Both the position numbers and the translations under genes were made by a program. From a virus, in the IMG/VR virus record IMGVR_UViG_3300024299_000001, positions 32,001 to 96,000 of that record: a stretch of DNA of 64,000 nucleotides. One strand, 5' to 3'. Below, one piece after another: positions 4,947 to 62,218 of this stretch (positions within the stretch are counted from its first letter, which is position 1; each line of letters starts with the position of its first letter). A model generated the notes under the pieces. That model saw nothing but the letters and a program-made list of their open reading frames with translations, did not search any database and was not told where the DNA came from.

Positions 4947-6311
4947 ATGACACTACCAAAGATGCATCCATACCAAACTAAAGCTTTGCAGTTTAGCTTA
5001 GTCAACCCTCAAACTTATCTGGCGTTAGATATGGGGCTCGGAAAAACTCGCATAGCTTTAGAATGGGCAAAACCAAAGTTAGACAAAGGAGTGCTTGTCA
5101 TAGCTCCACTAAAAGCCATCTATACTACATGGCCAGATGAAATCGAGAAGTGGGAGTTTGGCTACTCGTACACTATACTTCATGACACTGAGAAGCTTGA
5201 TAGGTTAGGGTTGAAACGTGACATGTACTTTCTTAACTTTGAAGGCATACAGTGGCTATTTGACTCTATGAAGCAGCTCTACAAGTTAACCAAGAGAGTA
5301 CCATTTAGATACATCATAATTGATGAAGGCTCAATGATCAAGAGCCCCAAGACTAAGCGGTTCAAGGTAATGCGTAAGCTCAGAGATATATTTCATGGAG
5401 CTACGATCTTGAGTGGCACACCTGCACCTCAATCTCTACTAAATCTCTGGTCACAGTATTTCTTTCTGGATGGTGGTGTTCGTCTAGGTAAGACGTATGG
5501 TAAATTTCAAGAGAAGTACTTCATGCCTCTGGACTATAAGCAGTTCACTTGGGGCATACAAAGTGAAGAGAAGAAGCAAGAGATATATGAGCGGATCAAG
5601 GACATCACGTATAGACTTGATGCAGGTGACTACATTAAGTTGCCACCTAGGATTGACAACATCATCAAGCTCAAGATGCCGCCTGAACACATGGCGCAGT
5701 ACAAGACACTCGAGAAGAAGTTCTTCCTGAAGCTGGAAGAGTCTGAGATTGAAGTATTTAACTCTGCAGCTCTGTCAATGAAGCTTCGGCAGTTTATACA
5801 AGGCGGAGTATACACAGATAAGAAAGGTACTTACGAGATAATCCACAAAGAGAAACTTGAGAAGCTTAAAGAGCTTGTTGAAGCTGCAAATGGCCAGGGG
5901 ATACTCTGTCCTATCCAATTTAAGTTTGAGCTTGAGATGATCAAGAAAGTGTGGCCCAAGGTACCTGCTCTAGTGGGTGGCATAGCAATCAAGGAATCTG
6001 CTAAGCACATTAGGAATTGGAACAAAGGCAAGATTCCTCTACTGATATGCCATCCCAAGAGTGTAAGTCATGCTCTCAACCTGCAGACAGGATCACACTT
6101 AATTGTGTGGTACGGCTTGACCTGGAGCACAGAGCAATACTTACAACTTAACAAGCGTGTACATCGACAAGGACAGAAGAACACAGTCATTGTACATCAC
6201 TTAGTTATGCAGAATACTATCGACACGTCAATCATGAACGCACTTAAGGCTAACATTAAGACACAAGCGGAGTTATTAGACTTTATTAAAAACTATAGAG
6301 AGGAAGAATAA
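4947..6311 (+). CDS. SNF2-family (SF2) DNA helicase/translocase
   Basis: Motif I 'DMGLGKT', II 'IIIDEGS', III 'LSGTPAPQ', VI 'RVHRQGQKNTVIVHHL'. Confidence 0.85.
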   Translation: MTLPKMHPYQTKALQFSLVNPQTYLALDMGLGKTRIALEWAKPKLDKGVLVIAPLKAIYTTWPDEIEKWEFGYSYTILHDTEKLDRLGLKRDMYFLNFEGIQWLFDSMKQLYKLTKRVPFRYIIIDEGSMIKSPKTKRFKVMRKLRDIFHGATILSGTPAPQSLLNLWSQYFFLDGGVRLGKTYGKFQEKYFMPLDYKQFTWGIQSEEKKQEIYERIKDITYRLDAGDYIKLPPRIDNIIKLKMPPEHMAQYKTLEKKFFLKLEESEIEVFNSAALSMKLRQFIQGGVYTDKKGTYEIIHKEKLEKLKELVEAANGQGILCPIQFKFELEMIKKVWPKVPALVGGIAIKESAKHIRNWNKGKIPLLICHPKSVSHALNLQTGSHLIVWYGLTWSTEQYLQLNKRVHRQGQKNTVIVHHLVMQNTIDTSIMNALKANIKTQAELLDFIKNYREEE

Positions 6312-30300: not shown

Positions 30301-33300
30301 GGTAGTGCTATACCAGATAAAGCTTTCAAGAAATTTTCATTAGTTAAACCAAGAATAACAAATTCAGCTAAATGGGGAGAGTGTCCTGATTCCCGGGTAA
30401 TCTTTGTTGCAGTGTCTGTTTGTTCAGATGCTTTGCGTTGAGCAGCAGTCCTGGTGTTACGAAAGATATAATTATATCTTTTCTGGGCAGCTTCAATTTC
30501 ATATTGATTTGCAGGATCATTCAACCAAGCAGCATTTACAGTTGGGTCGTTTAAAAAAGCTCTATAATCAAGCTTTCGGTAAGCCAGTTCATATAAGGTA
30601 TCCACTTGAGCACCTAATCTTGCATTAAGGCGTAAACCAGCTTCAAGTACCGGATGTAATAATTCATGGGTGTATACTTCACCAGAAGACATCCGGATAC
30701 CATTATTTAGGGCCCCAGTTATTGGGGCTGCAATTTGATTAGTCATAAAGACCTGACGAGTCTGGGATACAAATTTTCCTTCTGGTTCAGCATAAGGATT
30801 AGTTTTCATATACAGATCAACCGGCTGGAACACTGAATGTATCAAAGTCTTTAGAATTCGTTGCAGGTGATTATCATGCTGTACACTGTCTGTTACAGTG
30901 CTTTCACCCTTAATGTCATTGTAAACCTCTAATACATTCTTACTGCTTATTTCCTGAGCCCTGCCATATTTAGCTGGATCAATGGAAAGAGTGGAATCAT
31001 CTTTTGAACCAAGAGAATCGTTCGAATCTTCTTTAAGCATCTCAGCAATAAAAGCTTCTTCCAGTTCTTGTACAGAAAGATTATAATCAGCAAGAGCTTG
31101 TTGGTTAATTGTTGCTTGTGAGTACAAACCAGGCTCTGTTTTTGTTTCTACTATATTTACACCACCTATACTGGTTTGAGGAGCATTACCAGTTTTCCAT
31201 GCACCATCTCTATGAAAATAATGGTTAAAAGCAGTAACTGCATTCAGAACTCTGGCTTTATTTATTTTGGTTACTCTTACAATTTCCTTAATACCAAATT
31301 TCTTTTTACGTTTACCTTTCTCAGGAACACCATTTACTGTTTCATCCACTACTTGCTGTACTGATTTAGTCCAAGTTTTATTGTTGTAAGAAGAAACACC
31401 TTCTGTTAAACCCATTTCTTTAAAAACTTTTTGAAGTACTCTGTCTTTCTTTTCTTCTCGGGCAGGGTTTTCATTTGCGAATTCTGTAAAAGCTTCTATG
31501 GAAGTGGTAAAGGCTTCTACAATTTTTTCAGGTATACTGTCCAAAGACATATCGGTATAGAGGCTTTTATTTATAATTTGACCCATTGCGCCACCATTGG
31601 TAATGGCAACATAAAAACCATCATGAACTCCTAATACACCAACTCCCTGGTTATTGCCCATTGCTCTATTAGCAGAACTAGAATCATAATTTTGCACACT
31701 TATAATAACCGGTTTTACACTGGGATCTCCTAGTGTACTGAGTTTCTTTGCTCTATTATGCATTGGCTGGTAATGTACATTACTACCATCTGGTTGATAA
31801 GACTGAGTAGAGGTTCCTTCTACAGCAGTAGTATATTCAAGATTTGTAGCAAATTCAGCTAAAGGAACTTTCCCACCTAAAGAAGATTTTAAAACAGGAA
31901 AGATTTTCTTTATTCTATCACGAATTTGTTGTAACTGCTCTTGGGTCATTACACTACCAAATTTAGCAACATGCTCTTGAACTAACATTTTCTGCGCAGC
32001 ATTGTAAAAAGCAGCAGCAATTGTAATAGCTTTATTCAATGGAGTCCTGGCTTGTTGTATGTCTCCATAGATTTTATCTATAGCCTGAGTTAAGGCCTTA
32101 CCATGGTATTTATTAGTAAAAGCAGCAATATCTTCATAGATACTGGGATTAAGTTTAATCTTTAATAAAGCTTCTTTATTTAAATTTCCTTCAACACCAG
32201 CAATATTGGCAGGAATAAATAATGCTTTTGGGTTATTAGCTAAAGTATTAGTGTAACGAACAAGTTCTCTTAATTCATCAGCTGCAGCTGGACGAGTAGG
32301 GTCTTCTAAAATCTTTTCTAACTTAGCTTTAATACCATCTTCAATTATTGTAATGACTAAACCTCGTTTAATCTTACCATGACCGGAGCCATATAAAGCA
32401 CCTACAGCTCTATTCTTAGCTAATTTACGTACAGCCTTATCTAAGAAGCCTTTACTATCTGTAAGTTTTCCTAATAAGAATTCTGCAGCTTCCATGCGTT
32501 TATAAGTTGCAGTATCCTTAGCAGCGATCATAGTCTTTTTTAATTGGTTCACTAAAGCGCCCCAACCGGCCCCAATAGATTGGTAAGGATCATAAGGAAC
32601 AGTATCTGTTTCTACAGGATTCTCAGTAAACACCATACCTTCACTGGCTGCAATACCTAAATTCTTTATAGTGGGTAAACTTAATAATAACTGGATACCG
32701 CCAATAGTTGGTCCATTTGCCTGACCATCAATCTCTACTGGAAGAGAAGTAGTAAATTTACCAGCACCTGCTCTTTGAAATCTTTGGTACTCAAGAAGAC
32801 CTTTTAAAGTATGAAGGTCTTCGCCACCTTCTTTAATACCGGCTAAAATATCAGCCTCTAAGTCTGGTTGAGCTTTACGTAAGGCTACCATCTCATCTGG
32901 TGAGTACTCAGTATGCTGTTCTGCGGCTGATAGGAATACATCAATAGCAGCTAAAGCAGATTGTATTACTGGACTTTCTAAAATATCAGTTGTTTTTTGT
33001 TGCACTATAGCCATAGATGCTTCTTTAGTAGGATCCACTCCTAATGAGAGGCCTACTGCTGCTTTAAATAATTCAACTACTTGTTCATCTGATTTATCAA
33101 AAGTGGCTTCCCAAGCTTTATTTTTAAACAGAAATCTATGGGTCATACTATTTTGTGGTTGAATAGGACCTGCTTGTTGCATTCGTCCAGTAGCAATAAA
33201 ATAAGATTGTATAAAGAAATTAGAAGCATACTTAGCTGTTTCTTTTTTAGCATTGTGTAACCAGAAGCGTACTGCATCCAGATCAAGTTCAATTTTACGA

Positions 33301-36300
33301 TTAATACTCTCTCTGTGTTTATGTCGGTCATGTGTTGCATCATTAATGTTTACTGCACCAGCTGCAGTTCTCTGTCCAGCATTAGTCAGAAAAGTAAATA
33401 TATTCATAACACCATGGGATAATCCATAAGGTTGTTCAATATATTGTTTTAAATTATTGGTTTGAGGGATTGTTGCAAATTCACTTGTTCTGGCCAATGG
33501 CCACTTTTCTTTATCATTTTCCCAGGTGGGTTTGGTAAAAGAGTAGTCTAACGGATCTGCTGTTAATTTAAATAATTGTTCCCAGACACCTTTACCATAT
33601 TCATAATCTGTTCGTGTCTGGGTATTTGCATTTGTTAAGGCTTCAAATGAAGTCCCATCTTTTAATGTAACAACCTTACTAGCAATACGAAAGAAATCTA
33701 CTTTAGTAGTGTTTTTTCTGTCTATAACATCTTCTTTGGCTACATCTAGTCTTTGATCAGGAAGAATAAAAGTATTTATTAATTGAGGAGAGAGTGGAGC
33801 TTGTGGAGTATTTAACATATGATTACGTAAACCATAGAATCCTAAAGTAATCTTTTCTGTTTTTACAGGAGTACTGGGTATTCTTCCGGCATTAACTTGA
33901 GTACGCTCTACTCGACCCATACGATCTAATGTAGCCAATAACAGAGTACCAAGATCTTGTTCAATGAGCTCTCGGTCAAATACACCAATATCTTGAGTAG
34001 CCTTGATCTCAAACATCTTAATAACATCTTTACCCAGCGTTCCACTCAAATAATCTTTGGAGGCGCCAATACGACTAACCAAAGCTCTAACATCTTCAGA
34101 GATTTCCTGACTCTCTTTAAGATTAAATATTTTACGAATACTTTTGTCATCATTTATTAAGGTTTTAGGACCTTGAGTTGCTAACCACTTCCAAGCAGTA
34201 GCTGACATGGCCATAAGAAAGTTAGGATTTAGTTCACCATTAACTCTAAAATAATTAACAGCATCTTCATAAAAGAATTTTTCATTTGCTTTTGGTTTAA
34301 AAGTTTTAAGTAATGTAGCAGAGAATTCTTTATTAAACTTCATTAAAGCAATTGCTGCTTTTTCCTGATCTGGATTTAAAGAATGATTTTTAGATAATAT
34401 CTTTTTACGCATTGCTGCAACAAAATCAGGAATCTTATTTAATAAACTCTTAGGGCCGGCTTTACCATAAATTGGTTTAAAAAAAGCTCTAAGCGTATTA
34501 ACCCATAATCTGTTATTGGCTAAATCAGTATTATTTGTGTTACCTGGGGTAAGAGATTCTCTATCAATACCTGTTTTATCAGTTAATTGTTCAGCTAAGG
34601 GTGTATGTTTTTCAGAAGCTGTTTTTTCATATAATTGTTTTCTGCGATTTTGATATTCTGTATTATAAGAATTTTTCCATTTATTAGTTTTAGGATCAAT
34701 ACCTAAAGCTTCCATTATACTATCAGGATCTGTTGTTATAGGGTTATTCGAAATAAAAGCAAAATCAGTCTCTGAAAAATTTCTATTTTTTAATTCTTGT
34801 TTAATACTATCATAATACTCTTGTTCATTACTTGCGTATCCTTGAGCAACTTCACCATAACGAAGATGCTCAGAAATATCTCCTTCGTAATTTTCTTTAT
34901 CCAACTCATCCATTAAAACAGAAGTAGCTGTAGTACTATGATCATACTTAATATTCTTTTTTGAAACAGAATACTGTCCTTTAGGTATGATAATATCTTT
35001 TTTTGTAACAATCCTTTGTTCCCGTTCATCACCTACTACTCTTTCATCAGTAACAGCAGTTCCACCTTGTCTATTTAAAGGAAAGATTTTATCAAGATAA
35101 TCAATATTTATTTGTATAATAAAAGGATTTTTAGAATACCGATTTCCATACTCTTCTGCTAATTCTTTATCTTCAGCAAAAGAAATTCCAGTATTTTTAA
35201 ACAAGGAATCATGAGTAGGGGTTAAAACTAAATTACCTTTATCGTCTATATAAGGAGCCTCTTCCTGCCCCCTAAATAAAGTTTTTTCAGATGGCTCAGA
35301 CTCAGAAAATGCCGACGCGTCGTCAGCATTTTCTTCGGGTTTAGAGCCATCTTCTTTCTTTGGTTTCTTTTCAGTTGCATGCTTTGTTCTAAGTACTGCT
35401 TCAATTTCTTGTCTTCTGTCAGTATTAGTTTTTTCAGTATTCTGATAAAGAGTTTGTAATTCCGCTTTGGTCATTTCTTCTAATGTTAAGAATGTTTCAG
35501 ATTCATCCTGACCAAAAAAAGTATCTTCCTCTTCAACTACAAAATCTTCTTGTACTGGTGTAGTTGTTTCAATATCTTGGTCTGTTTTATAGGCTTTTAA
35601 ACCTAATTCTTGTGCTGTTGCAGTAAGAACTTTACCTGTATTTGTTTTTATTTCAATACTATAACCAGTAACAGTTTTTACCCCATTAACTATACTGAAG
35701 CTATCTGGAATCACATTACCAGTTACCTGAGCTTTAAAGGTACCAGTGTATTTAGGAAAATCAACAGTAACCCATTTTCCTTTATTTGTTTTAACTAAAG
35801 AAGTTATTTCTTGCTCAGCACTCAAAGGTTGTTCATTACTTCCGACTTCCTCTGAGGAAACATCTTCCGCTGTCGCTGCAGAAATTTCCTCCTCCTCAGT
35901 CTCAGACTGAACAACCTTTTCGGCAGTAGGCTGAGCTTGGGGAGGGGTGATCATATCCTGTGCAACTGAAAGAGCTTCAGACAGAGAATCAGCCTCACGC
36001 TCCATGGATTGAATTGAAGCTTCAAAGTTTGTATTAAAGTCATAATCGGCATTATAACCAATTGATGCACGTTCAGTGTTCAGTTGTTCTAAGAATTTCT
36101 GATCAGCCGCAGAGAATGTTTTAATGACTGCTTCTTGTTCTTCAGTTGTTTTAGCTTTTGCTTTAATTACTGCATCCTGAAGTCTACGAAATAAATCAGC
36201 TTTAATGGCATGTCTTTCAGTGAATGCCTGAAGATCTGATAACTGAGATTTAGCTAATTTGGTGTCCTTATTTTGTGTTGCAATGGCTATGGATTGCAGG

Positions 36301-38186
36301 TAGCCCTTGATACCTTTAAATTTATCTTTGATTCTACCATTGATAATATCTTGGTTCACCTGCACAGATGTCTTGTTTATAGGGCTTTTTTGGCCCTCTA
36401 GAGTCGCTTTGGCACTTTTCTGATAGGAGAGTATGCGTTTGAACTTAACCTTCGTTATATCGTCTATTTTGGGGTTATTCAGGACCTCATTGATATCAGC
36501 ATCTGTAAAATCACCTTTTGAACCAAAAACAGTAAGAATAGCTTCCTGGATCTTAACAGAATCAGAACCCTTAAGAATTGTCTTAACTTCTTTGAGTTTC
36601 TCAGGTGAAGCAGTCTCTTCTCGGCCCATACTATCGATGACCGGTACTATCTGATCTATGATGGCTTTAGAGGCCATGGCTTGTTTCATTGCAGAGACGG
36701 CTAACTCACCCTCTTCTTTAGTAAGTTCTCTTTCTTCTTTAATTGCCTGGTACTTCTGTACTTCTTTAATTTGTTCCTGGAATTCAGCATCTACTGCATT
36801 ATGGATCTCTATTGCTTTATCATGATTGGTTATTTTAACCGATGGATCCAGATCTTTCTTTTGATTAATCTGTTGTAATGCTTCAGCTGCCAATACAGGA
36901 TTATCTTTATGCATGGAAATGTCTTCTGTTTCAACAGCAGCTGATAATTTATCTTCATAACCTAATTGTGCTTTAGGATTCGCTTTAACCCTGAGAGCTT
37001 TACGTTCTGCTTTACGTTCAGTAGATTCTTGCTGTTCCTGTTCTGACCGAGTAAATACTCCGCCTACACTGGTAACCGGTCCACCAAGTGAACCAAGCAT
37101 ACCAGCATCAAACTGTTCTTTACGAGATTCAGCAGAGAAAGGATTCTTACCAGTACCCCATTGTTCAATGGCTGTTTGCGCGTACTCTTCAGCAAATTCA
37201 ACAGGAGCAACTTTACCTGCGGTTACACCAACTCTGGTAGCTTTGCCGGCCACACCACTTACTTTTTTACCTAATCCACCAATGGTACTGAGGCCACCTT
37301 TTAAAGCTTTTACATTAAACAGTAAATCTAAGTATTCAACTGCTCCGGCCAGTCCAGTAGCAATTCCAGCTTTCTGGATTTGTTTCCAGGTTACATCTGC
37401 TTCCTGGGATAGAGTACCAAATATCTCACCACCCTCTAAACCAAAACCAGCAGAGGCCATACCAATATGGGTACCAGCTTTACTGGTTACAGAAGATATT
37501 GCTAATTTAGATACTGAATCAGTTGCAGCAACTTTAGCAATGTTTTCAGTAGTTACTTTAGCACCTTGAGTAATTAATTGCTGTTTAGCTATCCGATCAG
37601 CTTCTTTCTTAACTAAACCACCCATAAGCTTACTAATTGCTTTTTTACCAGTAAGCTCCACACCGGTTTTAATAATACCACTACCAACCAACAAGCTAGT
37701 TAATTGCCCGGCCACATAACCCGAACCATGGGAGAACCAAGAAACTAATGCTTTCCAATCGCCTTCTTTAGCTTTTTCATAAGAGTAAGTAAAAGAATCT
37801 TCTGGTTGGGCGCCCACACCAATGTCTTGTTCAATTTTATGATACTTACCAGCAGCCGCTTCTTTAATCTTGGTAGCAATACCACCTTCCCCTACAATCT
37901 TTTCAGCCACAAGAGCACCGCCAGCTACTACACCTGAAGCTAACATAGGAATGCCCTTAACTGATTCTACAACACCCCGAGCTGCTGCTTCAGGAAGAGT
38001 CTCTTTATAAGGGATTAAAGGCTGATTAGGTTCTTGAAAAGTGTTAACACTGCTTCGTAACTGTGCTTCCATAGTTGCAGTATCAAATTGCTTTTCTGCT
38101 GTTTTACTATTCAATATATCTATCTTAGCTTGAAGAGTATTTTGAAGATCAATACCTTTTTGCGGAGCAAGCTCTGGATCAAACAT
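27375..38186 (-). CDS. virion-encapsidated RNA polymerase (N4 gp50-like vRNAP), 3603 aa
   Basis: Central T7-like single-subunit RNAP motifs: A 'LPVEIDGQANGPTIGGIQ' (D1820), B 'RKLAKNRAVGALYGSG' (R1920, K1924, Y1932), C 'GVLGVHDGFYV' (H2188-D2189). The size and position match N4-like phages. Confidence 0.85.
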   Translation of the reverse strand: MFDPELAPQKGIDLQNTLQAKIDILNSKTAEKQFDTATMEAQLRSSVNTFQEPNQPLIPYKETLPEAAARGVVESVKGIPMLASGVVAGGALVAEKIVGEGGIATKIKEAAAGKYHKIEQDIGVGAQPEDSFTYSYEKAKEGDWKALVSWFSHGSGYVAGQLTSLLVGSGIIKTGVELTGKKAISKLMGGLVKKEADRIAKQQLITQGAKVTTENIAKVAATDSVSKLAISSVTSKAGTHIGMASAGFGLEGGEIFGTLSQEADVTWKQIQKAGIATGLAGAVEYLDLLFNVKALKGGLSTIGGLGKKVSGVAGKATRVGVTAGKVAPVEFAEEYAQTAIEQWGTGKNPFSAESRKEQFDAGMLGSLGGPVTSVGGVFTRSEQEQQESTERKAERKALRVKANPKAQLGYEDKLSAAVETEDISMHKDNPVLAAEALQQINQKKDLDPSVKITNHDKAIEIHNAVDAEFQEQIKEVQKYQAIKEERELTKEEGELAVSAMKQAMASKAIIDQIVPVIDSMGREETASPEKLKEVKTILKGSDSVKIQEAILTVFGSKGDFTDADINEVLNNPKIDDITKVKFKRILSYQKSAKATLEGQKSPINKTSVQVNQDIINGRIKDKFKGIKGYLQSIAIATQNKDTKLAKSQLSDLQAFTERHAIKADLFRRLQDAVIKAKAKTTEEQEAVIKTFSAADQKFLEQLNTERASIGYNADYDFNTNFEASIQSMEREADSLSEALSVAQDMITPPQAQPTAEKVVQSETEEEEISAATAEDVSSEEVGSNEQPLSAEQEITSLVKTNKGKWVTVDFPKYTGTFKAQVTGNVIPDSFSIVNGVKTVTGYSIEIKTNTGKVLTATAQELGLKAYKTDQDIETTTPVQEDFVVEEEDTFFGQDESETFLTLEEMTKAELQTLYQNTEKTNTDRRQEIEAVLRTKHATEKKPKKEDGSKPEENADDASAFSESEPSEKTLFRGQEEAPYIDDKGNLVLTPTHDSLFKNTGISFAEDKELAEEYGNRYSKNPFIIQINIDYLDKIFPLNRQGGTAVTDERVVGDEREQRIVTKKDIIIPKGQYSVSKKNIKYDHSTTATSVLMDELDKENYEGDISEHLRYGEVAQGYASNEQEYYDSIKQELKNRNFSETDFAFISNNPITTDPDSIMEALGIDPKTNKWKNSYNTEYQNRRKQLYEKTASEKHTPLAEQLTDKTGIDRESLTPGNTNNTDLANNRLWVNTLRAFFKPIYGKAGPKSLLNKIPDFVAAMRKKILSKNHSLNPDQEKAAIALMKFNKEFSATLLKTFKPKANEKFFYEDAVNYFRVNGELNPNFLMAMSATAWKWLATQGPKTLINDDKSIRKIFNLKESQEISEDVRALVSRIGASKDYLSGTLGKDVIKMFEIKATQDIGVFDRELIEQDLGTLLLATLDRMGRVERTQVNAGRIPSTPVKTEKITLGFYGLRNHMLNTPQAPLSPQLINTFILPDQRLDVAKEDVIDRKNTTKVDFFRIASKVVTLKDGTSFEALTNANTQTRTDYEYGKGVWEQLFKLTADPLDYSFTKPTWENDKEKWPLARTSEFATIPQTNNLKQYIEQPYGLSHGVMNIFTFLTNAGQRTAAGAVNINDATHDRHKHRESINRKIELDLDAVRFWLHNAKKETAKYASNFFIQSYFIATGRMQQAGPIQPQNSMTHRFLFKNKAWEATFDKSDEQVVELFKAAVGLSLGVDPTKEASMAIVQQKTTDILESPVIQSALAAIDVFLSAAEQHTEYSPDEMVALRKAQPDLEADILAGIKEGGEDLHTLKGLLEYQRFQRAGAGKFTTSLPVEIDGQANGPTIGGIQLLLSLPTIKNLGIAASEGMVFTENPVETDTVPYDPYQSIGAGWGALVNQLKKTMIAAKDTATYKRMEAAEFLLGKLTDSKGFLDKAVRKLAKNRAVGALYGSGHGKIKRGLVITIIEDGIKAKLEKILEDPTRPAAADELRELVRYTNTLANNPKALFIPANIAGVEGNLNKEALLKIKLNPSIYEDIAAFTNKYHGKALTQAIDKIYGDIQQARTPLNKAITIAAAFYNAAQKMLVQEHVAKFGSVMTQEQLQQIRDRIKKIFPVLKSSLGGKVPLAEFATNLEYTTAVEGTSTQSYQPDGSNVHYQPMHNRAKKLSTLGDPSVKPVIISVQNYDSSSANRAMGNNQGVGVLGVHDGFYVAITNGGAMGQIINKSLYTDMSLDSIPEKIVEAFTTSIEAFTEFANENPAREEKKDRVLQKVFKEMGLTEGVSSYNNKTWTKSVQQVVDETVNGVPEKGKRKKKFGIKEIVRVTKINKARVLNAVTAFNHYFHRDGAWKTGNAPQTSIGGVNIVETKTEPGLYSQATINQQALADYNLSVQELEEAFIAEMLKEDSNDSLGSKDDSTLSIDPAKYGRAQEISSKNVLEVYNDIKGESTVTDSVQHDNHLQRILKTLIHSVFQPVDLYMKTNPYAEPEGKFVSQTRQVFMTNQIAAPITGALNNGIRMSSGEVYTHELLHPVLEAGLRLNARLGAQVDTLYELAYRKLDYRAFLNDPTVNAAWLNDPANQYEIEAAQKRYNYIFRNTRTAAQRKASEQTDTATKITRESGHSPHLAEFVILGLTNENFLKALSGIALPERMYTTSTWSDIQAGNIQQTLLNIAQKIFDFFYSKFNASKNDLRMDRELERLAILLSKIDSNHKNKLFETQSKFEQQYRKVADLSNKYIKKAATSGPLKIVKGLKTAVKTHKDKDSLAGDQLRKMTNDYDRLEYGLFKSLVTELRGRTDRLAPIYQLLNRRGVWLDSAKEFTIAQYSGIAGKLFTKFRDPKQTKLTDAEKVVVTKIGLKPDTVALLDSLSMDGISKVLGDPNELRKAINNVLNQIKTDTALAPHLTYYKQAADAMGHFMIHSRGRTGEEVFQNALVIAEMKARDDVTVPLTAAEVLRAEELINQLGSLYALQHTDKASRQVFKELIDTDPEGVNKFFELHQVLKEDSLQKAFNGDERKFIKGYTKEIVNTRTNYQYGTLAEEEELAQIGYSRSEFPIDRDEADPLKHIDIYVYTAQTGRINDLLSTIFSYTGNRGKGTDPLTIAQQMDISTKEGKKNNAKIIKYKAKIIRDMANPNIKPELKPSNQMIPQVDENGITTKYRYMMAETTKDNFLEKVNEYDKIMGAMAGQIIDKERTPIINEELIVLLKDMFDADYQSNPGGFIEIGPNSPDPKLRDIYHMMPDKAKQTVDTVWGGPSMFIPKDVLDISFGYRQYNIVESFAKNPEDRAKLERLLIGIVSLFGGEVKGVRRAHTLEGAMIELAKLAKNNIIVRSLSVTLNNFGSNLFVLRSKGIPFNVIIKSAWEAFSMGLKYQADIQKLADLEVKRRMLAKRKGAAPQSLLDLDNQIMRLKNTIEINPTTKTIEAGLMPQFIDDVNTTISGSNFPSEFEKGVTKLTDKLPQIVQNVGKVTFLTQDTQAYQVLNNAVKMTDFVARHVLYHYYTSSARGDEQMSHEEAVAEAIEEFVNFAVPTHRMVEYLNSIGLLRFTKYAIRILKVIKNNAMDKPFDVAAALFLSTHIGADNINNSIPGVTKNMFSNFGNPFSFFVDSVDSILPVNYLKMFFSK

Positions 38187-54043: not shown

Positions 54044-55639
54044 TTACACTACATAAGAATCAATTGTTGATACATTGTCTTCCTTCTCACTTTCATAAAC
54101 ATTATTTTGGTCTTTATGCATGATCACATTATCACTTGGTCTCCATACTGTCAAACTACTCAACATAGAAATAGTATCTATAAAGTCATCGTGTTTACTC
54201 TTCATACCGCTCGGAGAAACTAATTGCAACTCATTTATGCACTCTTGCATTGGAGGGGTGTCTTTTAATTCTAAAGGAAGATACATTTTTTTAGCCTTGA
54301 ACCAAGGAACAACAATATTAAATCTAACCATTTTATGGGAGTTAGGTCTTATGCCCGGCTGGTTACTATTATTGTCAGTTGCGAGCATAAAATAAATATT
54401 ACGATCCATCATTTCACTTTGGATCCAGGGTATAAATCCACCTTGCTGGCCACTCACCTCAACACCTACTGTCTGGGGTTGCCACTTCTGAGCCAACCTA
54501 AATAAGTCATCAATGTTATGGTTCATTAACTGCTTTTTACAAATGCCATCGATCCAAAACCAAAAGCCTTTATTATTCAGGGCCCACACCGATATAACAG
54601 AAAAATCACTAGAACTCTTCTTACTGGTGGCAAAATCAGTAGTAATATAATAATTAAAGGCCCCTAAATTATTTAAGATCATTTCATGTTTATACCAACA
54701 AATATCTGAATCCTGGATTAACCTGTCTTCCTGAGACATAATTCTCAACATTAACTCCTGGTTAAACGCACTGATCTCACCATTCTCTGAGAGAGTATCA
54801 TACTCCTGCTGTACAAAGTCAAAGGTAAACCTGTCCTCCCAAGCGCCTTTAAAGTCCTCTCTGGCACAGGGAAACTCTTCACAGATCGGATATACTCTGG
54901 TATTCCAACCACTACTGCCTGCAGCTTCATATAATGGGTCTCTTTGATTAAAAGGGGTACCGGTCCATATAACCATACGCTTAGCAGGATGCATAGCCTG
55001 TCGAGCAGCTTTATATATAATATTCTTTATATCCCGGGTAATAGTAGCTGATTCAGCATTCTTATCACTCATTAAATCGTCAAAGCCTGCCCAGGATGGC
55101 CTGGTCCCATATTCTTTAAATCCTCTCACACCGGTACTGGCCCCGAACCCTCTGACACAAAATCTATGGCCGGCAGCATTAATAAACTCCCATCGGACAT
55201 CAGTAAAGTTTGCAGTAGGAATATAAGTTTTTAAGAATTCAGAATTATTATACCTGAACTCTAAATTCTTACGCATACTCTTAATACCGTTATCAATGGT
55301 GTCACTGATATACATTGCCACTGACACCTCACCAAAATCAAAGAATTCACCATATACTGCAATATATAAAAACATGTACTCATGTAGAGCAGTCGTTTTG
55401 GCACTGCCACGGAAAGACACAAATAGATTATTATTATTAGCATTTATATTATCGAGCATATCCATATGGAAGACAGGTGACTTATTTTCTTCACCTTCAG
55501 TACCATTAACTAACTTAATAAAAGTAATATAAGCCAGTGCTTCTTCTGACGGGACATAATGCTCATTGAAAAAAGAATAATTAACTTCATTAAGTAATTT
55601 TTCTAAAGATGGGTTATCTTTTAATTTATCAGTCATCAT
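54044..55639 (-). CDS. terL: terminase large subunit
   Basis: Walker-A-like 'SFRGSAKTT', 'WTGTPF', and the C-terminal nuclease acidic motifs 'DFATSKKSSSDFSVISVWA' and 'KHDDFIDTISM'. Confidence 0.85.
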   Translation of the reverse strand: MMTDKLKDNPSLEKLLNEVNYSFFNEHYVPSEEALAYITFIKLVNGTEGEENKSPVFHMDMLDNINANNNNLFVSFRGSAKTTALHEYMFLYIAVYGEFFDFGEVSVAMYISDTIDNGIKSMRKNLEFRYNNSEFLKTYIPTANFTDVRWEFINAAGHRFCVRGFGASTGVRGFKEYGTRPSWAGFDDLMSDKNAESATITRDIKNIIYKAARQAMHPAKRMVIWTGTPFNQRDPLYEAAGSSGWNTRVYPICEEFPCAREDFKGAWEDRFTFDFVQQEYDTLSENGEISAFNQELMLRIMSQEDRLIQDSDICWYKHEMILNNLGAFNYYITTDFATSKKSSSDFSVISVWALNNKGFWFWIDGICKKQLMNHNIDDLFRLAQKWQPQTVGVEVSGQQGGFIPWIQSEMMDRNIYFMLATDNNSNQPGIRPNSHKMVRFNIVVPWFKAKKMYLPLELKDTPPMQECINELQLVSPSGMKSKHDDFIDTISMLSSLTVWRPSDNVIMHKDQNNVYESEKEDNVSTIDSYVV

Positions 55640-56311: not shown

Positions 56312-56836
56312 CTATTTTATAATCATCCAATCATCAGCCAGCATATCAGTCTGTGAAGCTAACCAGCCTGGTAACCATTTCTTATCAGCAGTCCACATTG
56401 CAATATACGGAAGCGTTACAAGGGGTGTGTCTTCACCAATCCATTTTGCGGTTCGATCATTAACCTTTCTATCTGTCCCTTGTGTTGAGAAAGGAGGTAA
56501 AGTCATTCCAGTCATAAGTACCAACCACATATCTTTACCATTCCAACCTGCCCGGGCAACCTTATGCCCAGTTTTAAGTGCTGCAATAGCTGTTCCAAAG
56601 GTCATAGAATCTTCAAGTGATTTATAAGCTGCCTCAAACACATCCATTGGGCTCCATGAGATATAATGACAACCGCTTTCCAAGGGTCCATCAAATTTAC
56701 CCTTAGCATTTGAGTAACCAACCATATAGCCATCAGCTAATGGTTCATCCGGAACATCCATTCTCTGTGAATCACAGTAATCTCCACGAGTCATAGGTGT
56801 TGCTTTAATAATTTTTGTACCAATAAACTTTTCCAT
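56312..56836 (-). CDS. two-domain protein: N-terminal small beta domain + C-terminal DUF2829 (Tad2-like) domain
   Basis: C-terminal half: 'MTFGTAIAALKTGHKVARAGWNGKDMWLVL...PYIAMWTADKKWLPGWLASQTDMLADDWMII', the DUF2829 signature. Confidence 0.75.
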   Translation of the reverse strand: MEKFIGTKIIKATPMTRGDYCDSQRMDVPDEPLADGYMVGYSNAKGKFDGPLESGCHYISWSPMDVFEAAYKSLEDSMTFGTAIAALKTGHKVARAGWNGKDMWLVLMTGMTLPPFSTQGTDRKVNDRTAKWIGEDTPLVTLPYIAMWTADKKWLPGWLASQTDMLADDWMIIK

Positions 56837-58216: not shown

Positions 58217-58246
58217 AGTTTATCCCCTTATTTTATGGATAAACAC

Positions 58247-58274
58247 AGCATACCATATAAAACATGTAAGTCAA
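58247..58274 (-). promoter_or_regulatory. sigma70-like promoter for the leftward block
   Basis: On the minus strand: TTGACT, 16 nt, (TGg)TATGCT. The -10 lies ~31 nt upstream of the ATG at 58216. Confidence 0.35.
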
Positions 58275-58356
58275 GGACTATTTTCCCATAAAAAGTGTGG
58301 TAAGAAATTGTTCATAACTATTTGAAATTATTAGTGATTCGCAGATTGGTGACGTC

Positions 58357-58397
58357 TATATATATATTATTTGCGCGTACATGCGCGCGCGTATATA
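58357..58397. repeat. (TA)5-type run followed by a 26-nt perfectly alternating pyrimidine/purine GC-rich tract
   Basis: tatatatatat (58357-67) and tgcgcgtacatgcgcgcgcgtatata (58372-97). Confidence 0.8.
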
Positions 58398-58507
58398 AGA
58401 GCATGCTGCGCATACCCATGTTTCGCTACGCTCAACTAAGAGCAACTAAAACTGAACCAAAGAGAAAGAACACAAGATCGGTAGATCTGTAACCGATTAT
58501 TAAGGGT

Positions 58508-58520
58508 GCGCCAGAGGCGC
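58508..58520 (+). other. 5-bp stem / 3-nt loop DNA hairpin GCGCC-AGA-GGCGC
   Basis: Perfect inverted repeat read directly from the sequence. Confidence 0.6.
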
Positions 58521-58527
58521 GTAAAAA

Positions 58528-58563
58528 GAAAAAGGACCGAGTTTACCAAGCCCGATCCTTTTT
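58528..58563. other. A-run/T-run flanked hairpin (bidirectional-terminator-like)
   Basis: gaaaaaggaccg...cgatccttttt gives an 11-bp stem with one mismatch. No gene ends here on either strand. Confidence 0.35.
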
Positions 58564-58658
58564 CAACAACCACTAACCAAAAGGAGTTTAACATGTCCCA
58601 TGAGAAGACATTAACTAAAACCTATACTAATTAAATTTAACTTGCAAGTAATAAAACT

Positions 58659-58694
58659 AAAAAAGAGTAAACTAGTTAAAGTTCACTCTTTTTC
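58659..58694. other. A-run/T-run flanked hairpin
   Basis: aaaaaagagtaaac-tagttaaa-gttcactcttttt gives a 9-bp core with one mismatch. Confidence 0.35.
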
Positions 58695-58784
58695 AGGGAG
58701 GTTAAAAAAAGGCCCGTGAGAAACCTTAATATTACTATTATATTATATAATTACCTTAAGCAAGTAATTTTAACTTTTTGCAAC

Positions 58785-58968
58785 TTTTCTCAAAAAATAA
58801 AATTTGAGTACACCGGTAGTTCTGTTTCAGGTTTTTCAGAAAAAAATAAATTAGACGTAGATGAAGTTCGGTTCCAGGTTTTTGTCAAAAAAATAAATTA
58901 CGTACAGATGAAGAGTTTGCGAGTTTTTTAAAAAAATAAAAATTACGTACACCGGTAGTTCTGCTCTG
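58785..58968. repeat. four tandem imperfect ~46-bp A-tract repeats
   Basis: Units are 58785-58831, 58832-58878, 58879-58923 and 58924-58968. The shared core is TTTTT-N-AAAAAATAAA(A)TT-ACGTA. The 17-nt gtacaccggtagttctg is exact in units 1 and 4. Confidence 0.85.
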
Positions 58969-59047
58969 TAAAGAGCCTACAACACAAACCCACCCCCGGG
59001 TGCTTAAAACTTTAGGGCTACGTTTTCATCACCCACCATCTGCCTGG

Positions 59048-59066
59048 CCTCTGGCTATATCAATGG
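59048..59066 (+). promoter_or_regulatory. phage promoter-like motif, copy a (cctctggctatatcaatgg)
   Basis: One of 5 copies of CCTCYGGYYATATNWWYGG. It lies 36 nt upstream of the ATG at 59102. Confidence 0.55.
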
Positions 59067-59101
59067 CACTAACGCCACAATCCCTAGCTAGGAGATTTAT
59101 C

Positions 59102-59359
59102 ATGTTTCAAAATTTAACCCGGGTAATGACCCGTACATCCGATGTCATTGTGGACACAATGGGTGTCCTATCTATTAACATGTCCTCACTTAAAGTCATA
59201 AGCGAAGGCGGTAACGTCAAAGCTGAGGACTTCAAAGCAGCATGTATCGATGATGCTGCTCTTGCCGCTGACAAGCGTAAGTATGACATCACAAAACAAC
59301 GTATTGACCTCGATGCCGATCATCAAGCGCTTCTGGCCACTCCTAAACCTAAGAAATAA
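59102..59359 (+). CDS. hypothetical early protein (85 aa)
   Basis: ATG at 59102 has an AGGAG SD 8 nt upstream. The track start at 59000 would run through the promoter-like motif. Confidence 0.6.
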   Translation: MFQNLTRVMTRTSDVIVDTMGVLSINMSSLKVISEGGNVKAEDFKAACIDDAALAADKRKYDITKQRIDLDADHQALLATPKPKK

Positions 59360-59367
59360 CCCTAACC

Positions 59368-59405
59368 AGCCATACCCAGTCCATCGGGTATGGCTTTACT
59401 CTTTT
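59368..59405 (+). terminator. rho-independent terminator
   Basis: Perfect 10-bp stem agccataccc/gggtatggct with an 8-nt loop, then ttactctttt. Confidence 0.7.
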
Positions 59406-59605
59406 ACTACACAAAGAACACATTAAGATAGTTGCTTTAAGATTGCTGTTTAGCTCCGTGCGTAAGAGGTCGTAATTACCTGTAATAACACTGTTATTTA
59501 AATGTTTACACTGTTTAGCTTGATTTAACATAGTTCATCACTCCGACCATCGGTCACTATACCTACCCGACATACTAACACCTTCAGTCTGTATCAACAC
59601 CTCTA

Positions 59606-59624
59606 CCTCCGGTTATATAAACGG
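59606..59624 (+). promoter_or_regulatory. phage promoter-like motif, copy b (cctccggttatataaacgg), with no ORF downstream
   Basis: The motif matches the consensus, but the next credible ORF is 477 nt away and sits behind another copy of the motif. Confidence 0.5.
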
Positions 59625-60031
59625 ATAGTTGTTATAAAGGCAAGTTCATCCATGTGACATATCTCCGTAACGAGATATATGCACGTTGAACTAGCAAAGC
59701 ATAACAACTGTTCCTTTGCTAGAAAGACATTACCGCCGAACGGCAATGAGCGGTAGTATCATGCATCGAAACTATAAATAAAGCCGACAAGCTTAGTGCA
59801 CTTGGAACTCCCAACGCACTAATTCACACCTTGGACCGTGTGTCTTAAATTACTAACCAGTTGGTTAGTCCATTATTTGATTGACCAGAATGGGGAGGTG
59901 TTTGAAAAGAATATGCATAGCTCGTTGCTTAATAACTGCAAGCATATCACCTAAATCTACATTGGTCTAATCATCTTAAAGCTATAACCTCTGGGCAAGG
60001 TTAAAAGAATACTGCCCATTAACTTGCCCAA
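59625..60031 (+). ncRNA. candidate structured non-coding transcript
   Basis: No ORF longer than 25 aa with an SD. An 83-nt nested hairpin spans 59627-59709, and at least five further perfect 5-8-bp stems follow. Confidence 0.3.
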
Positions 60032-60050
60032 CCTCCGGTTATATCAATGG
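60032..60050 (+). promoter_or_regulatory. phage promoter-like motif, copy c (cctccggttatatcaatgg)
   Basis: Lies 51 nt upstream of the ATG at 60101 and is followed by the 16-nt palindrome gaagtattaatacttc. Confidence 0.55.
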
Positions 60051-60100
60051 AAGTATTAATACTTCTTTAAACTAATTACTACTAATAGGAGCTACCAACC

Positions 60101-60274
60101 ATGCGTAATACTCAAACTGAAGAACTAACCAACTTACTCAATAATATTAATATTACTAACTTTCAAAAACAAATTAAAGCCTTTGATATTACTAAAAATC
60201 AATTCTTCTTTATTGATAAAGATACAGTTATTCATGCTTATTGTATTAAAGGTATTTGGTACTGCAAAGCTTAA
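60101..60274 (+). CDS. hypothetical early protein (57 aa)
   Basis: Hand-translated: MRNTQTEELTNLLNNINITNFQKQIKAFDITKNQFFFIDKDTVIHAYCIKGIWYCKA, with a TAGGAG SD. Confidence 0.55.
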   Translation: MRNTQTEELTNLLNNINITNFQKQIKAFDITKNQFFFIDKDTVIHAYCIKGIWYCKA

Positions 60275-60302
60275 TAATTATACCTTTCTAATTAAATTAT
60301 AA

Positions 60303-60326
60303 GTGTGGGCCTAACCGGGCTCACAC
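60303..60326 (+). other. stem-loop between early genes
   Basis: gtgtgggcc-taaccg-ggctcacac gives 9 bp including one G.T. No T-run follows. Confidence 0.4.
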
Positions 60327-60347
60327 ATTAACCAAAGGAGATAGACC

Positions 60348-60554
60348 ATGCGTAACCAAATCGGAGCACGTTACCTACATCACTGCATCAATCGTACTGA
60401 TAAGTCATTCAATGGCATCATTAACATTGCCAACCGACAATATGTTAGACTATCAGCAACTACCCTTAAACGCACTAAAACAGGAGACTTAAATAATGGA
60501 AAATCATTCAAGCAGTTCAGAAAATACAAAGAAAATAACCAGGTTTTGGGATGA
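60348..60554 (+). CDS. hypothetical basic early protein
   Basis: 68-aa ORF with an AAGGAG SD. It overlaps the RadC-like gene by 59 nt. Confidence 0.55.
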   Translation: MRNQIGARYLHHCINRTDKSFNGIINIANRQYVRLSATTLKRTKTGDLNNGKSFKQFRKYKENNQVLG

Positions 60555-61032
60555 CCTTAAATCCGGGCATTTTGCGTCTATGATCAAGGAATCCAGTAAG
60601 GGCAATGCTTTATCAAATGCCCAGGAGGTCTGTAATATCATGAAGCCTTTCTTTGCCAGGCATGACGACATCGAAAAAATGTACTGTATCTTACTGGATG
60701 CCAAAAATCACATCATTGCTATCGAAAAGATGTTTTCTGGCTCAATCACAAGTTCCGCAGTATACCCCAGAGAAATTGTAAAAAAGGTGTTGAAAAATAA
60801 AGCTGCAGCAATAATTTTGACACATAACCACCCGTCGGGCTCCACAAAGCCATCATCTGAAGATCTTATGATTACAGCACGAATTGGAATTGCACTTTCA
60901 AGCATTGATGTAACCTTGCATGACCATCTGATTATTGGAGAAAATTATTACAGTTTTTCTGAACAGGGATGGTTAGAGAAAACAAACCAAAAATATCAGG
61001 ATTTCATCTTTGCCAGCATCATAGCAGATTAA
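60496..61032 (+). CDS. radC: RadC-like JAB/JAMM domain protein
   Basis: 'ILTHNHPSGSTKPSSEDL' is an exact HxH-x7-S-xx-D JAMM motif, and 'DHLIIG' follows downstream. An AGGAG SD precedes the ATG at 60496. Confidence 0.8.
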   Translation: MENHSSSSENTKKITRFWDDLKSGHFASMIKESSKGNALSNAQEVCNIMKPFFARHDDIEKMYCILLDAKNHIIAIEKMFSGSITSSAVYPREIVKKVLKNKAAAIILTHNHPSGSTKPSSEDLMITARIGIALSSIDVTLHDHLIIGENYYSFSEQGWLEKTNQKYQDFIFASIIAD

Positions 61033-61056
61033 ACCCAGTTCAATAAAAATTAATAG

Positions 61057-61094
61057 AAACCTTTTGGAGTTGTTCCAAAGGGTTTTTTGTTTTT
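61057..61094 (+). terminator. rho-independent terminator after the RadC-like gene
   Basis: aaaccttttgga-gttgt-tccaaagggttt is followed by ttttgttttt. Confidence 0.75.
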
Positions 61095-61119
61095 GAATTA
61101 ATAACCAAGGAGAAGACCA

Positions 61120-61395
61120 ATGGCCAAAAAGCCTCATAACATTAAATTACAAGGCATCCTTCCTGACGGTCATATTGCTAAAACATCTGATGCTGACCAA
61201 GTATCAGCCTTCGTATCAATTGACCGCAAAGTATCTGTGGTAATACGCCCAGACAGAGCATTCCTTAGAACTCCCAAGGGTCACTATCAGCTTACCAAAC
61301 ATAAGAGTGCCAACCGGTACCAAGGCATTGTAGAGGGAAATAAAACCCACATAACCACCAAATTAATAGTTGGTAAAGTAATATGGTGGGCATAA
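61120..61395 (+). CDS. hypothetical early protein
   Basis: 91-aa ORF with an AAGGAG SD. Confidence 0.65.
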   Translation: MAKKPHNIKLQGILPDGHIAKTSDADQVSAFVSIDRKVSVVIRPDRAFLRTPKGHYQLTKHKSANRYQGIVEGNKTHITTKLIVGKVIWWA

Positions 61396-61420
61396 CTACA
61401 ACAGCTGGAGGTCGAACAGG

Positions 61421-61439
61421 CCTCCGGCTATATCTTTGG
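61421..61439 (+). promoter_or_regulatory. phage promoter-like motif, copy d (cctccggctatatctttgg)
   Basis: Lies 29 nt upstream of the ATG at 61468. Its 5' half can also pair with gctggagg (61404-11). Confidence 0.55.
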
Positions 61440-61467
61440 GTATTAATATTAAATAAAGGAGATAGTT

Positions 61468-61659
61468 ATGAAACTCTATGAACCCGTTGAACTCGGTGAA
61501 ACCATTAAAGCCGGTTATCAATTTAAACGCCGAGGAGAGAATACCTGGGTTAGCTTAGATCAGTCTTCGATCGATAGCTTTGTTGCAATAACCAAGAAAC
61601 CTATTATCTATGATGCCCTTGATCGTCTTTGTCGTAAACCATTAAAGGAGTTTGAATAA
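61468..61659 (+). CDS. hypothetical early protein
   Basis: 63-aa ORF with an AAGGAG SD. Confidence 0.65.
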   Translation: MKLYEPVELGETIKAGYQFKRRGENTWVSLDQSSIDSFVAITKKPIIYDALDRLCRKPLKEFE

Positions 61660-61745
61660 TGTGCAACAGGTACTGCTCATCCAAAAGAAATTAAAATATC
61701 ATTACAAACAACAATAGTTTAATTATAAATAAAGGAGTAATTATT

Positions 61746-62021
61746 ATGGTTCAGTCATTTTGGGACAGGCCTTCACCGGTTCTTACTCAACAAGAGTTAA
61801 AAAACTGTGAAACAGTACTTGCACAAATAAAAATAGATGGTAAATCTTCTTTATGCCCCATTAATACAAAATGTGAAAGTATTTGCTGTAAACTCTTTCC
61901 AGAATTACCTGACTATACATGTCCTTGTGGGTCTCAGTATAAACCCTTGCATCTTATCCGCGTACTTAATAAGTTAATCAGAGAGAATACTTACCGATTA
62001 AATAAAACAAAAGGAGACTGA
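61746..62021 (+). CDS. hypothetical Cys-rich protein
   Basis: 91-aa ORF with 8 Cys, including 'CESICC' and 'CPCG'. Confidence 0.6.
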   Translation: MVQSFWDRPSPVLTQQELKNCETVLAQIKIDGKSSLCPINTKCESICCKLFPELPDYTCPCGSQYKPLHLIRVLNKLIRENTYRLNKTKGD

Positions 62022-62026
62022 ACCAA

Positions 62027-62218
62027 ATGCCAAAGTATAAAATACATTGGACAGAAATCAGACAAGTCAGTTATCATACTGAAATAATTGCTGATAATAA
62101 GATTAGTGCCCAAAAGATGCTCTTTCATGATACTGATGAAGTTAGATCATCTGTTGAGAAAGTAGATGAAGACTGCTTTGATTATATATCTAAAATTAAA
62201 ATAGAGGAGATCAAATGA
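62027..62218 (+). CDS. hypothetical early protein
   Basis: 63-aa ORF, ATGA-coupled to the next gene. Confidence 0.6.
   Translation: MPKYKIHWTEIRQVSYHTEIIADNKISAQKMLFHDTDEVRSSVEKVDEDCFDYISKIKIEEIK

Follow-up and report, generated by a model that had tools for sequence, protein, structure and literature searches.

The early promoters of coliphage N4 are determined by a 3-nt hairpin loop with a central purine on the template strand, by a G:C closing pair and by a template C at +1 (PMC4496689). Transcription from these promoters is held to pull the genome into the cell, with about four polymerases injected (PMC4496689; PMC13434306), and a review of N4 also implicates the transcription machinery in DNA replication (PMC4496689). 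The early promoters of the N4-like phage LUZ7 combine a stem of 4 bp or more with a 3-nt loop, and transcription starts at a G located 13-14 bp past the hairpin centre; the putative small RNAs of LUZ7 are <250 nt long, intergenic and late, and lie between orf69 and orf70 (PMC9163698). For comparison, the N4 promoters P1-P3 were taken from the N4 genome (NC_008720). They read GTTGC-TTC-GCAAC..GG, AAGAAGC-TCC-GCTTCTT..GG and AAGCTGC-TCC-GCAGCTT..GG and are located just 5' of gp1, gp2 and gp15. The loop is TTC in P1 and TCC in P2 and P3, and the common read is GC-TYC-GC...ttGG.

Three further phage systems resemble the locus described here in one or the other respect. In T7, phiOL and phiOR are gene-less 'replication' promoters, phi1.1A/B is the primary origin, and origins carry an AT-rich stretch behind their promoters. 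The pRNA of phi29 is structured and is transcribed from an early promoter located near the left end of that genome. In T4-type phages, promoter-stem-loop cassettes (PeSL) flank swapped genes.

The window, i.e. the whole stretch of 64,000 nucleotides (64 kb) analysed here, is part of the IMG/VR record IMGVR_UViG_3300024299_000001 and, as judged from its genes, comes from an uncultured lineage of N4-like marine podophages (Schitoviridae). The terminase (54044-55639, minus strand) shares 55-64% identity with its counterparts in N4-like phages (Schitoviridae) that infect Vibrio, Alteromonas, Erwinia, Klebsiella and Salmonella, the portal protein is of the SU10/N4 type, and a giant minus-strand gene matches phrog_2206 'virion RNA polymerase' (E = 0, 1048 bits). 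Up to 58216 the late genes point leftward; from 59102 on, the early genes point rightward. The 0.8 kb between them (58217-59000) is AT-rich, contains many repeats and has the location that we take to be that of the genome-end junction in N4-like phages. If the genome ends meet here, the segment behind promoter copy b lies ~0.6-1 kb inside the left, first-injected end. The virion RNA polymerase is the enzyme expected to use the five hairpin promoters of the early region:

27375-38186, minus strand: gene of the virion RNA polymerase, 3603 aa
59047-59066, plus strand: promoter copy a (P1), GCC-TCT-GGC, 5' of gene 1 (ATG 59102)
59605-59624, plus strand: promoter copy b (P2), ACC-TCC-GGT (59605-59613, loop 59608-59610), TATAT box, GG at 59623-59624
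60030-60050, plus strand: promoter copy c (P3), AACC-TCC-GGTT, GG at 60049-60050, then a 5' stem-loop, AGGAG and ATG 60101
61420-61439, plus strand: promoter copy d, GCC-TCC-GGC, 5' of ATG 61468
63736-63756, plus strand: promoter copy e, GGCC-TCC-GGCC, 5' of ATG 63803

The motif CCTCCGGTTATATMAAYGG, searched with up to three mismatches, is found five times in the 64 kb (59048, 59606, 60032, 61421, 63738), each time on the plus strand, compared to 0.02 matches expected in shuffled sequence. The copies are confined to 59048-63756, the first ~5 kb of the early region; elsewhere in the window there are none. Behind each mini-hairpin (core RCC-TCC-GGY) come (Y)ATAT, four bases that vary and a GG that does not; this GG lies 14-15 nt past the loop centre in 5/5 copies. 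The start as predicted from sequence is G59623 in copy b, 14 nt past the loop centre. The loop reads TCC except in copy a, where it is TCT, the loop-closing pair is C:G throughout (5/5), and the stem, otherwise 3 bp long, has a fourth pair in copies c and e. Its third pair covaries (G-C in a, d and e versus A-T in b and c). The nearest different relative that we found, L028 (terminase 82% identical), has the same promoter design at four sites, with a 4-nt TTCC loop and covarying stems (AGC/GCT, ACC/GGT, AGCC/GGCT and GGCC/GGCC); the sample of covarying stems is thus small, five sites here and four in L028.

On architectural grounds, the assignment of the motif to the N4-type hairpin promoters, those of virion RNA polymerases, is solid, with initiation at the GG as a prediction. 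A preliminary description, made from the letters without database searches, had called the motif promoter-like and the expected transcript early; the first term is borne out by the architecture, and the second follows from the type of promoter. In common with N4 and LUZ7, the hairpin has a 3-nt TYC loop on the non-template strand (5'-GRA-3' on the template) and a C:G closing pair, the transcript is predicted to begin with GG, the promoters are clustered at the left end and point into early genes, and a virion polymerase of ~3500 aa is encoded. The GG offset of 14 nt compares to 13-14 in LUZ7. With 3-4 bp, the stems are shorter than in the characterised phages (5-7 bp in N4, at least 4 bp in LUZ7), and we therefore regard the motif as a variant of the N4-type promoter and not as a strict member. 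Furthermore, N4 lacks a TATAT box and has TT(AT)GG, 11 nt past the loop centre, whereas here TATAT is located between stem and start. While the N4 promoters P1-P3 all stand 20-60 nt before a gene, copy b stands before none.

Two of the copies overlap with competing structures. The core of copy b (59608-59625) is a near-palindrome, TCCGGTTATATAAACGGA, which is missing in copy c; in the DNA fold, where it would cover the start site, it forms in place of the ACC-TCC-GGT promoter hairpin. At copy d, an 11-bp hairpin (61403-61429) pairs an upstream GGAGG with the CCTCC of the promoter, so that the terminator of the preceding gene and the promoter hairpin are mutually exclusive structures.

With the exception of copy b, every copy has an AGGAG and an ATG within the next 35-65 nt. 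Our check of the sequence agrees with the preliminary description in that no gene stands behind copy b and that the segment ends at the next motif copy (60032). Between copies b and c, the longest plus-strand ORFs measure 25 aa (ATG start, as in the preliminary description), 38 aa (GTG) and 29 aa (TTG), and those on the minus strand 47 aa (TTG) and 26 aa (ATG). Unlike every neighbouring early gene, no frame on either strand has an AGGAG 7-9 nt 5' of its start; the sole GGAGG (59895) lies 14 nt 5' of an ATG opening a 13-codon frame. When any ORF of at least 45 aa on the expected strand is counted as coding, the 64 kb contain only four gaps of at least 200 nt, and 59427-60100 is the second-largest ORF-free gap, after the genome-end junction. 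Neither six-frame tblastn nor short-word blastn of 59380-60060, with relatives and the remaining window as targets, revealed a gene remnant, and 50,697 phage records searched by blastn in distant mode contained no match. The upstream spacer, outside the 426-nt segment, holds a 60-aa ORF on the minus strand (59349-59531), which has a GGAG 9 nt 5', spans the gene-1 terminator and is annotated as a gene in several metagenomes. For this ORF, no homologue outside the population was present among 1.84 billion representatives, and no PHROG was matched.

The segment and its upstream spacer contain the following predicted elements:

59368-59405, plus strand: gene-1 terminator, strong (-18.2 kcal/mol, z -6.6)
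59406-59604, plus strand: G-poor spacer of ~200 nt between the gene-1 terminator and promoter b
59623-59716, plus strand: 94-nt imperfect hairpin with a 13-bp basal stem including two G-U pairs, inner stems, apical ATATCTC/GAGATAT and loop CGUAAC
59726-59760, plus strand: hairpin ACAUUACCGCC...GGCGGUAGU, not significant alone (59717-59800, z -0.35)
59793-59822 and 59825-59842, plus strand: two hairpins, UUAGUGC..GCACUAA with inner UUGG/CCAA, and CACAC..GUGUG
59852-59882, plus strand: weak terminator-like site, a 7-bp hairpin ACUAACC-AGUU-GGUUAGU (59852-59869) followed by CCAUUAUUUGAUU
59883-60029, plus strand: spacer 5' of promoter c, not significantly structured (59882-60031, z -1.26)
59992-60030, plus strand: hairpin GGGCAAGG..CUUGCCC abutting promoter c (z -2.5)

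As a whole, 59620-60031 (412 nt) folds with -113.3 kcal/mol (z -3.99) on the plus strand and -124.9 kcal/mol (z -4.62) on the minus strand, better than all shuffles on both. It ranks ~4th of 1272 composition-corrected stretches of 412 nt in the 64 kb and is thus unusual, not unique. The excess folding is local, comprising only 59623-59716 (-33.6 kcal/mol and z -6.44 on the plus strand, -34.3 and z -6.19 on the minus strand) and 59790-59880 (z -3.27 and -3.60, respectively). Folded as DNA, 59590-59730 reaches a z of -4.0. All stems given in the preliminary description were recovered: agttgttat (59627-35) with ataacaact (59701-09), gcaagttca/tgaactagc (8/9 pairs) and atatctc/gagatat around CGTAAC, and further downstream taccgc/gcggta, ttagtgc/gcactaa, cacac/gtgtg, actaacc/ggttagt and tgggca/tgccca. 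These stems are pure Watson-Crick, and the fold is equally strong on both strands, without strand preference. The nested hairpin itself was described as 83 nt long; it is present, but its length is 94 nt, with four more pairs (two of them G-U) that reach G59623. The first base of the hairpin is thereby the predicted +1, and the G-U extension to +1 exists only in plus-strand RNA. The statement that the segment is highly structured holds locally, for the 94-nt hairpin and for the hairpins at 59793-59869, while the rest is not significantly structured.

Stem-loops at +1 are also predicted for copies a, c and e, for 3/4 L028 promoters and for N4 P1 and P2. In most of the early stem-loops the first paired base is the +1 G, as in GGC..GCC, GGAAGUA..UACUUCU and GGGAGUAC..GUGCUCC; they are located at 59065, 60049 and 63755 in the window and at 5511, 4931 and 820 (minus strand) in L028, and those of N4 (L023, ~106 and ~576) read GGACA..UGUCC for P1 and GGAUG..CAUCC for P2. 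A +1 stem-loop may be a general trait of virion polymerase transcripts, serving 5' protection or the release of the RNA from the single-stranded template. Going by the predicted folds, the 94-nt hairpin looks like an enlarged form of what other early transcripts in this clade carry as a short 5' stem-loop.

The preliminary description had suggested a dedicated early non-coding RNA, a decoy or a regulatory leader. No Rfam family (Rfam 15) matched anywhere in the window at gathering thresholds, and in a relaxed search of 59300-60150 (E up to 10) the best E was at least 0.4, at 12-19 bits versus thresholds of at least 50. In the window and 11 related loci, a covariance model built on the 94-nt hairpin recognised nothing but the hairpin itself. 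Within the window no antisense target complementarity exceeded 12 nt, and a search for tRNA and tmRNA genes found none. The possibility of a CsrA sponge was rejected, as four GGA in 410 nt (hand count) are about the chance number. A brief search of Vibrio phage 1.238.A for hairpin promoters without a gene was not productive.

On its plus strand the segment contains a single terminator-like site, the hairpin at 59852-59869 (3/7 pairs G-C, -7.9 kcal/mol, tail CCAUUAUUUG); the tail of this site (59852-59882) resembles the CCAUUAUUCUUUAU tail of the L028 gene-1 terminator. By comparison, the terminator after the RadC-like gene has -16.3 kcal/mol. As the internal terminator is weak (-7.9 versus -16 to -18 kcal/mol), read-through into promoter c and the operon at 60101 is likely. 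From these predicted stabilities, some ~255-nt RNA ending at the 59852-59869 site is possible, and a read-through leader appears at least as likely as a discrete RNA. Upstream of the second early promoter, a G-poor (C/A/T) tract of 60-120 nt is found on the non-template strand both in the window (59540-59605) and in L028 (~5080-4950, minus strand).

Searches with gene 1 and the terminase together with contig look-ups identified homologues on ~20 contigs from ~10 metagenomes and on one IMG/VR contig. Members of the lineage are present, among others, in the JGI samples 3300022888, 3300022912, 3300025660 and 3300028277. These contigs are >99% identical and differ from the window at 2-4 sites across 59360-60073, mostly singletons. 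Flanking genes differ by 0.2-0.8%; the conservation of the element equals the population background and gives no sign of purifying selection. One common SNP affects a stem: all other contigs have C at 59692, which creates an A-C mismatch on the plus strand. The element is kept in all ~20 contigs, across three gene-1 alleles and two gene-2 cassettes. Gene 1 (59102-59359) is hypervariable, with 47-48/258 nt differing and three alleles of 71-79% amino acid identity (remainder of the population 99.2-99.8%). Gene 2 is swapped for an unrelated gene in some variants (60074-60280), from 60074 onward, ~25 nt past the promoter c start. In the sequences compared, the promoter copies look like recombination joints for the exchange of accessory early genes. 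The gene 2 region (60100-60300) has 20-24% GC versus ~38% in the genome, which fits a recently acquired cassette. Apparent structural variation at the promoters (contig ends at 59588/59602 and 60022) was rejected on the basis of SNPs at 59461 and 60023 and assembler k-mers of 127 and 141.

At the corresponding place in L028, a gene-1 homologue with its terminator is followed by ~250 nt of G-poor spacer and by just one promoter, which stands immediately 5' of a NADAR gene; neither a gene-less promoter nor a 0.4-kb element is present. In more distant relatives (terminase 66-69%) nothing similar was detected by sequence or by the hairpin covariance model. IMG/VR, searched by motif, gene 1, RadC and the conserved left-end block, returned the same population and relatives without the element. 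JGI metagenome contigs (left-end block) and GTDB genomes (gene-1 profile; 20-mer of the hairpin apex) added no further lineage, and large protein searches (gene 1, terminase, gene-1 profile) with contig look-ups yielded no divergent homologue of the element. Across these collections, the element is restricted to one near-clonal population.

Our preferred explanation, which we find the most parsimonious and rate tentatively at somewhat less than an even chance, is a lineage-specific 426-nt cassette with a non-coding early transcript that is driven by the virion polymerase and acts as a stable early RNA, either a regulator or a decoy, or as a processed leader. In this scenario, the injected virion RNA polymerase would fire copy b at G59623 within the first minutes of infection. 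The transcript would be non-coding, its first 94 nt would form the long hairpin from +1, and four smaller hairpins would follow. The last of these (59852-59869) with its U-rich tail would act as a leaky terminator at best and give some ~255-nt RNA, while the remaining transcripts would pass promoter c into the operon at 60101. The 426-nt unit may have entered, or arisen, by the promoter-mediated exchange seen next door. We infer that copy b is transcribed and that RNA rather than DNA is the active form. On the predicted structures a non-coding RNA is plausible: the register of the hairpin with +1, the +1 stem-loops elsewhere and the unchanged presence of the element in all contigs argue for it. 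Against it argue the stem of copy b, which is just 3 bp long and would have to compete with the near-palindrome, the strand-symmetric Watson-Crick stems, which would also fit a DNA-level inverted repeat, and the fact that the closest different relative manages without the element.

The weak internal terminator also leaves room for an alternative, though in our judgement rather unlikely, explanation, in which copy b is a second upstream start for the operon at 60101, i.e. an extra site for polymerase loading and DNA entry in front of a 478-nt leader that is structured only against nucleases or to keep the RNA off the template. With a hairpin of -7.9 kcal/mol most transcripts should indeed read through, 5' stem-loops at +1 are general in the clade, in the N4 model early transcription draws the genome in (PMC4496689; PMC13434306), and the most expressed gene of LUZ7 has tandem early promoters (PMC9163698). 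A tandem start would hardly call for a spacing of 426 nt and a 94-nt hairpin (z -6.4), however, which far exceed the 6-8-bp stem-loops that suffice elsewhere; moreover, variants carry different genes downstream of an unchanged element, and L028 has one promoter at this place. Still less likely, the segment could be a neutral relic: recombination at promoters would have duplicated the promoter and trapped foreign or decayed cassette DNA, and the hairpin would be a functionless inverted duplication. The cassette-exchange zone with breakpoints adjoining promoter copies would be a natural place for such a relic, which would also account for the lack of the element in the next relative, for a conservation no higher than background, for strand-symmetric, pure Watson-Crick stems and for a majority allele (C at 59692) that weakens a stem. 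Yet the six-frame comparison revealed no vestige of a gene, the hairpin is in exact register with the predicted +1 through G-U pairs that work only in plus-strand RNA, phage genomes with 94% coding density, as here, seldom retain 0.4 kb of junk, and the element is present in every variant sampled (~10 samples).

The equal inverted repeats on both strands and the z of -4.0 for the DNA fold at 59590-59730 would suit an element that acts as DNA, either a transcription-primed origin (of the T7 phiOL, phi1.1A/B or mitochondrial type) or a cruciform or protein-binding site. The precedent is T7, whose phiOL/phiOR and phi1.1A/B share with copy b a single-subunit-type phage polymerase promoter near the genome end and no gene directly behind it. 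In N4, the transcription machinery is implicated in replication (PMC4496689). We nevertheless consider a DNA element improbable. An AT-rich unwinding stretch is missing: GC is 40-44% across 59600-59900, above the local mean, and the AT-rich DNA nearby lies in the repeats at 58600-58950 and at 60100-60300. In contrast to T7 origins, the DNA 3' of copy b is GC-richer than its surroundings and dominated by hairpins; iterons and tandem repeats were not found in the segment, and the closest relative must replicate without it. A hidden small protein gene, with a non-canonical start or a frame of 13-38 codons, is very improbable and the least likely explanation of all. A 38-codon GTG frame does lie at 59838-59954, the GGAGG at 59895 stands 14 nt before an in-frame ATG, and L028 has a gene for a 31-aa membrane peptide behind one promoter, but an AGGAG at 7-9 nt, which all neighbours have, is lacking, homologues were not found, and the 60-aa minus-strand ORF (59349-59531) lies outside the segment and has no relatives beyond the population. 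A bolder version of the preferred reading, in which the injected polymerase makes a structured RNA before any phage protein and this RNA acts directly on the host, is quite unlikely in our estimate, if less so than a DNA element. Such an RNA might be a decoy or inhibitor of nucleic-acid-sensing defence or a primer of the first replication round, and it would be carried on a swappable, promoter-bounded cassette beside protein counter-defence genes (Tad2-like; Acb2/Tad1-like and NADAR in relatives). If true, it would be the first known RNA effector from a virion-packaged polymerase in an N4-like phage.

The preferred non-coding transcript can also be set against the other known systems. With phi29 pRNA it would share the left-end position, transcription from an early promoter and its nature as a structured RNA, predicted in our case, that is non-coding and at most a few hundred nt long. 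Unlike pRNA, the copy b segment matches no Rfam model even at E up to 10, and N4-like phages package by a conventional terminase and portal; we know of no packaging RNA in N4-like phages. As in the T4 PeSL, repeated units of early promoter and stem-loop border accessory genes that vary among near-identical genomes (breakpoint 60074, ~25 nt past the promoter c start), but polymerase and promoter type differ, and one unit here is 0.4 kb of non-coding DNA and not a gene. The LUZ7 small RNAs are likewise non-coding transcripts proposed in an N4-like phage (here as a prediction only); they are late, not early left-end products of the virion polymerase, and have no sequence relation to the copy b segment.

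A functional RNA would mean that N4-like phages, within minutes of infecting a cell, commit one of the few polymerases they inject to a product that encodes no protein; this would amount to an immediate-early effector of a new class and to a novel role of hairpin promoters. The value is limited in that the element is confined to one near-clonal population and is known here from sequence alone. Even if the RNA is functionless, the five sites, whose 3-4-bp stems covary, define what an early promoter looks like in this uncultured lineage of marine Schitoviridae, and the promoter copies bound a zone of accessory early gene exchange.

Further observations concern the giant genes and the genome ends. 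For a second giant ORF (9960-19787, minus strand, 3275 aa), PHROG gave no match at E <= 1e-5. An alternating GC palindrome, TGCGCGTACATGCGCGCGCG (58372-58403), lies in the genome-end junction, as do, within 58777-58963, a direct repeat of 48 nt (58777, 58916) and a tandem pair of 47 nt (58818, 58865); the DNA that holds palindrome and repeats has 24-30% GC. Just 5' of promoter copy a (P1), a block TCTGTAAAGAGCCT...CCACCCCCGGGT (58962-59005) is common to the window and L028 (5570-5610, minus strand), while the DNA around it is not conserved with this relative (terminase 82%); by its position and conservation, the block is a candidate genome terminus or packaging signal. Accessory genes beside the genome ends (56312-56836, minus strand; 60496-61032 and 63037-63489, plus strand) are a Tad2-like gene, a gene with a RadC-like JAB domain and a peptide deformylase gene, and relatives (L028, L032, L034, L035) have genes with Acb2/Tad1-hairpin, NADAR, Lockin and WDGH domains at their genome ends. 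The genome-end neighbourhood is thus rich in cassettes of the counter-defence type.
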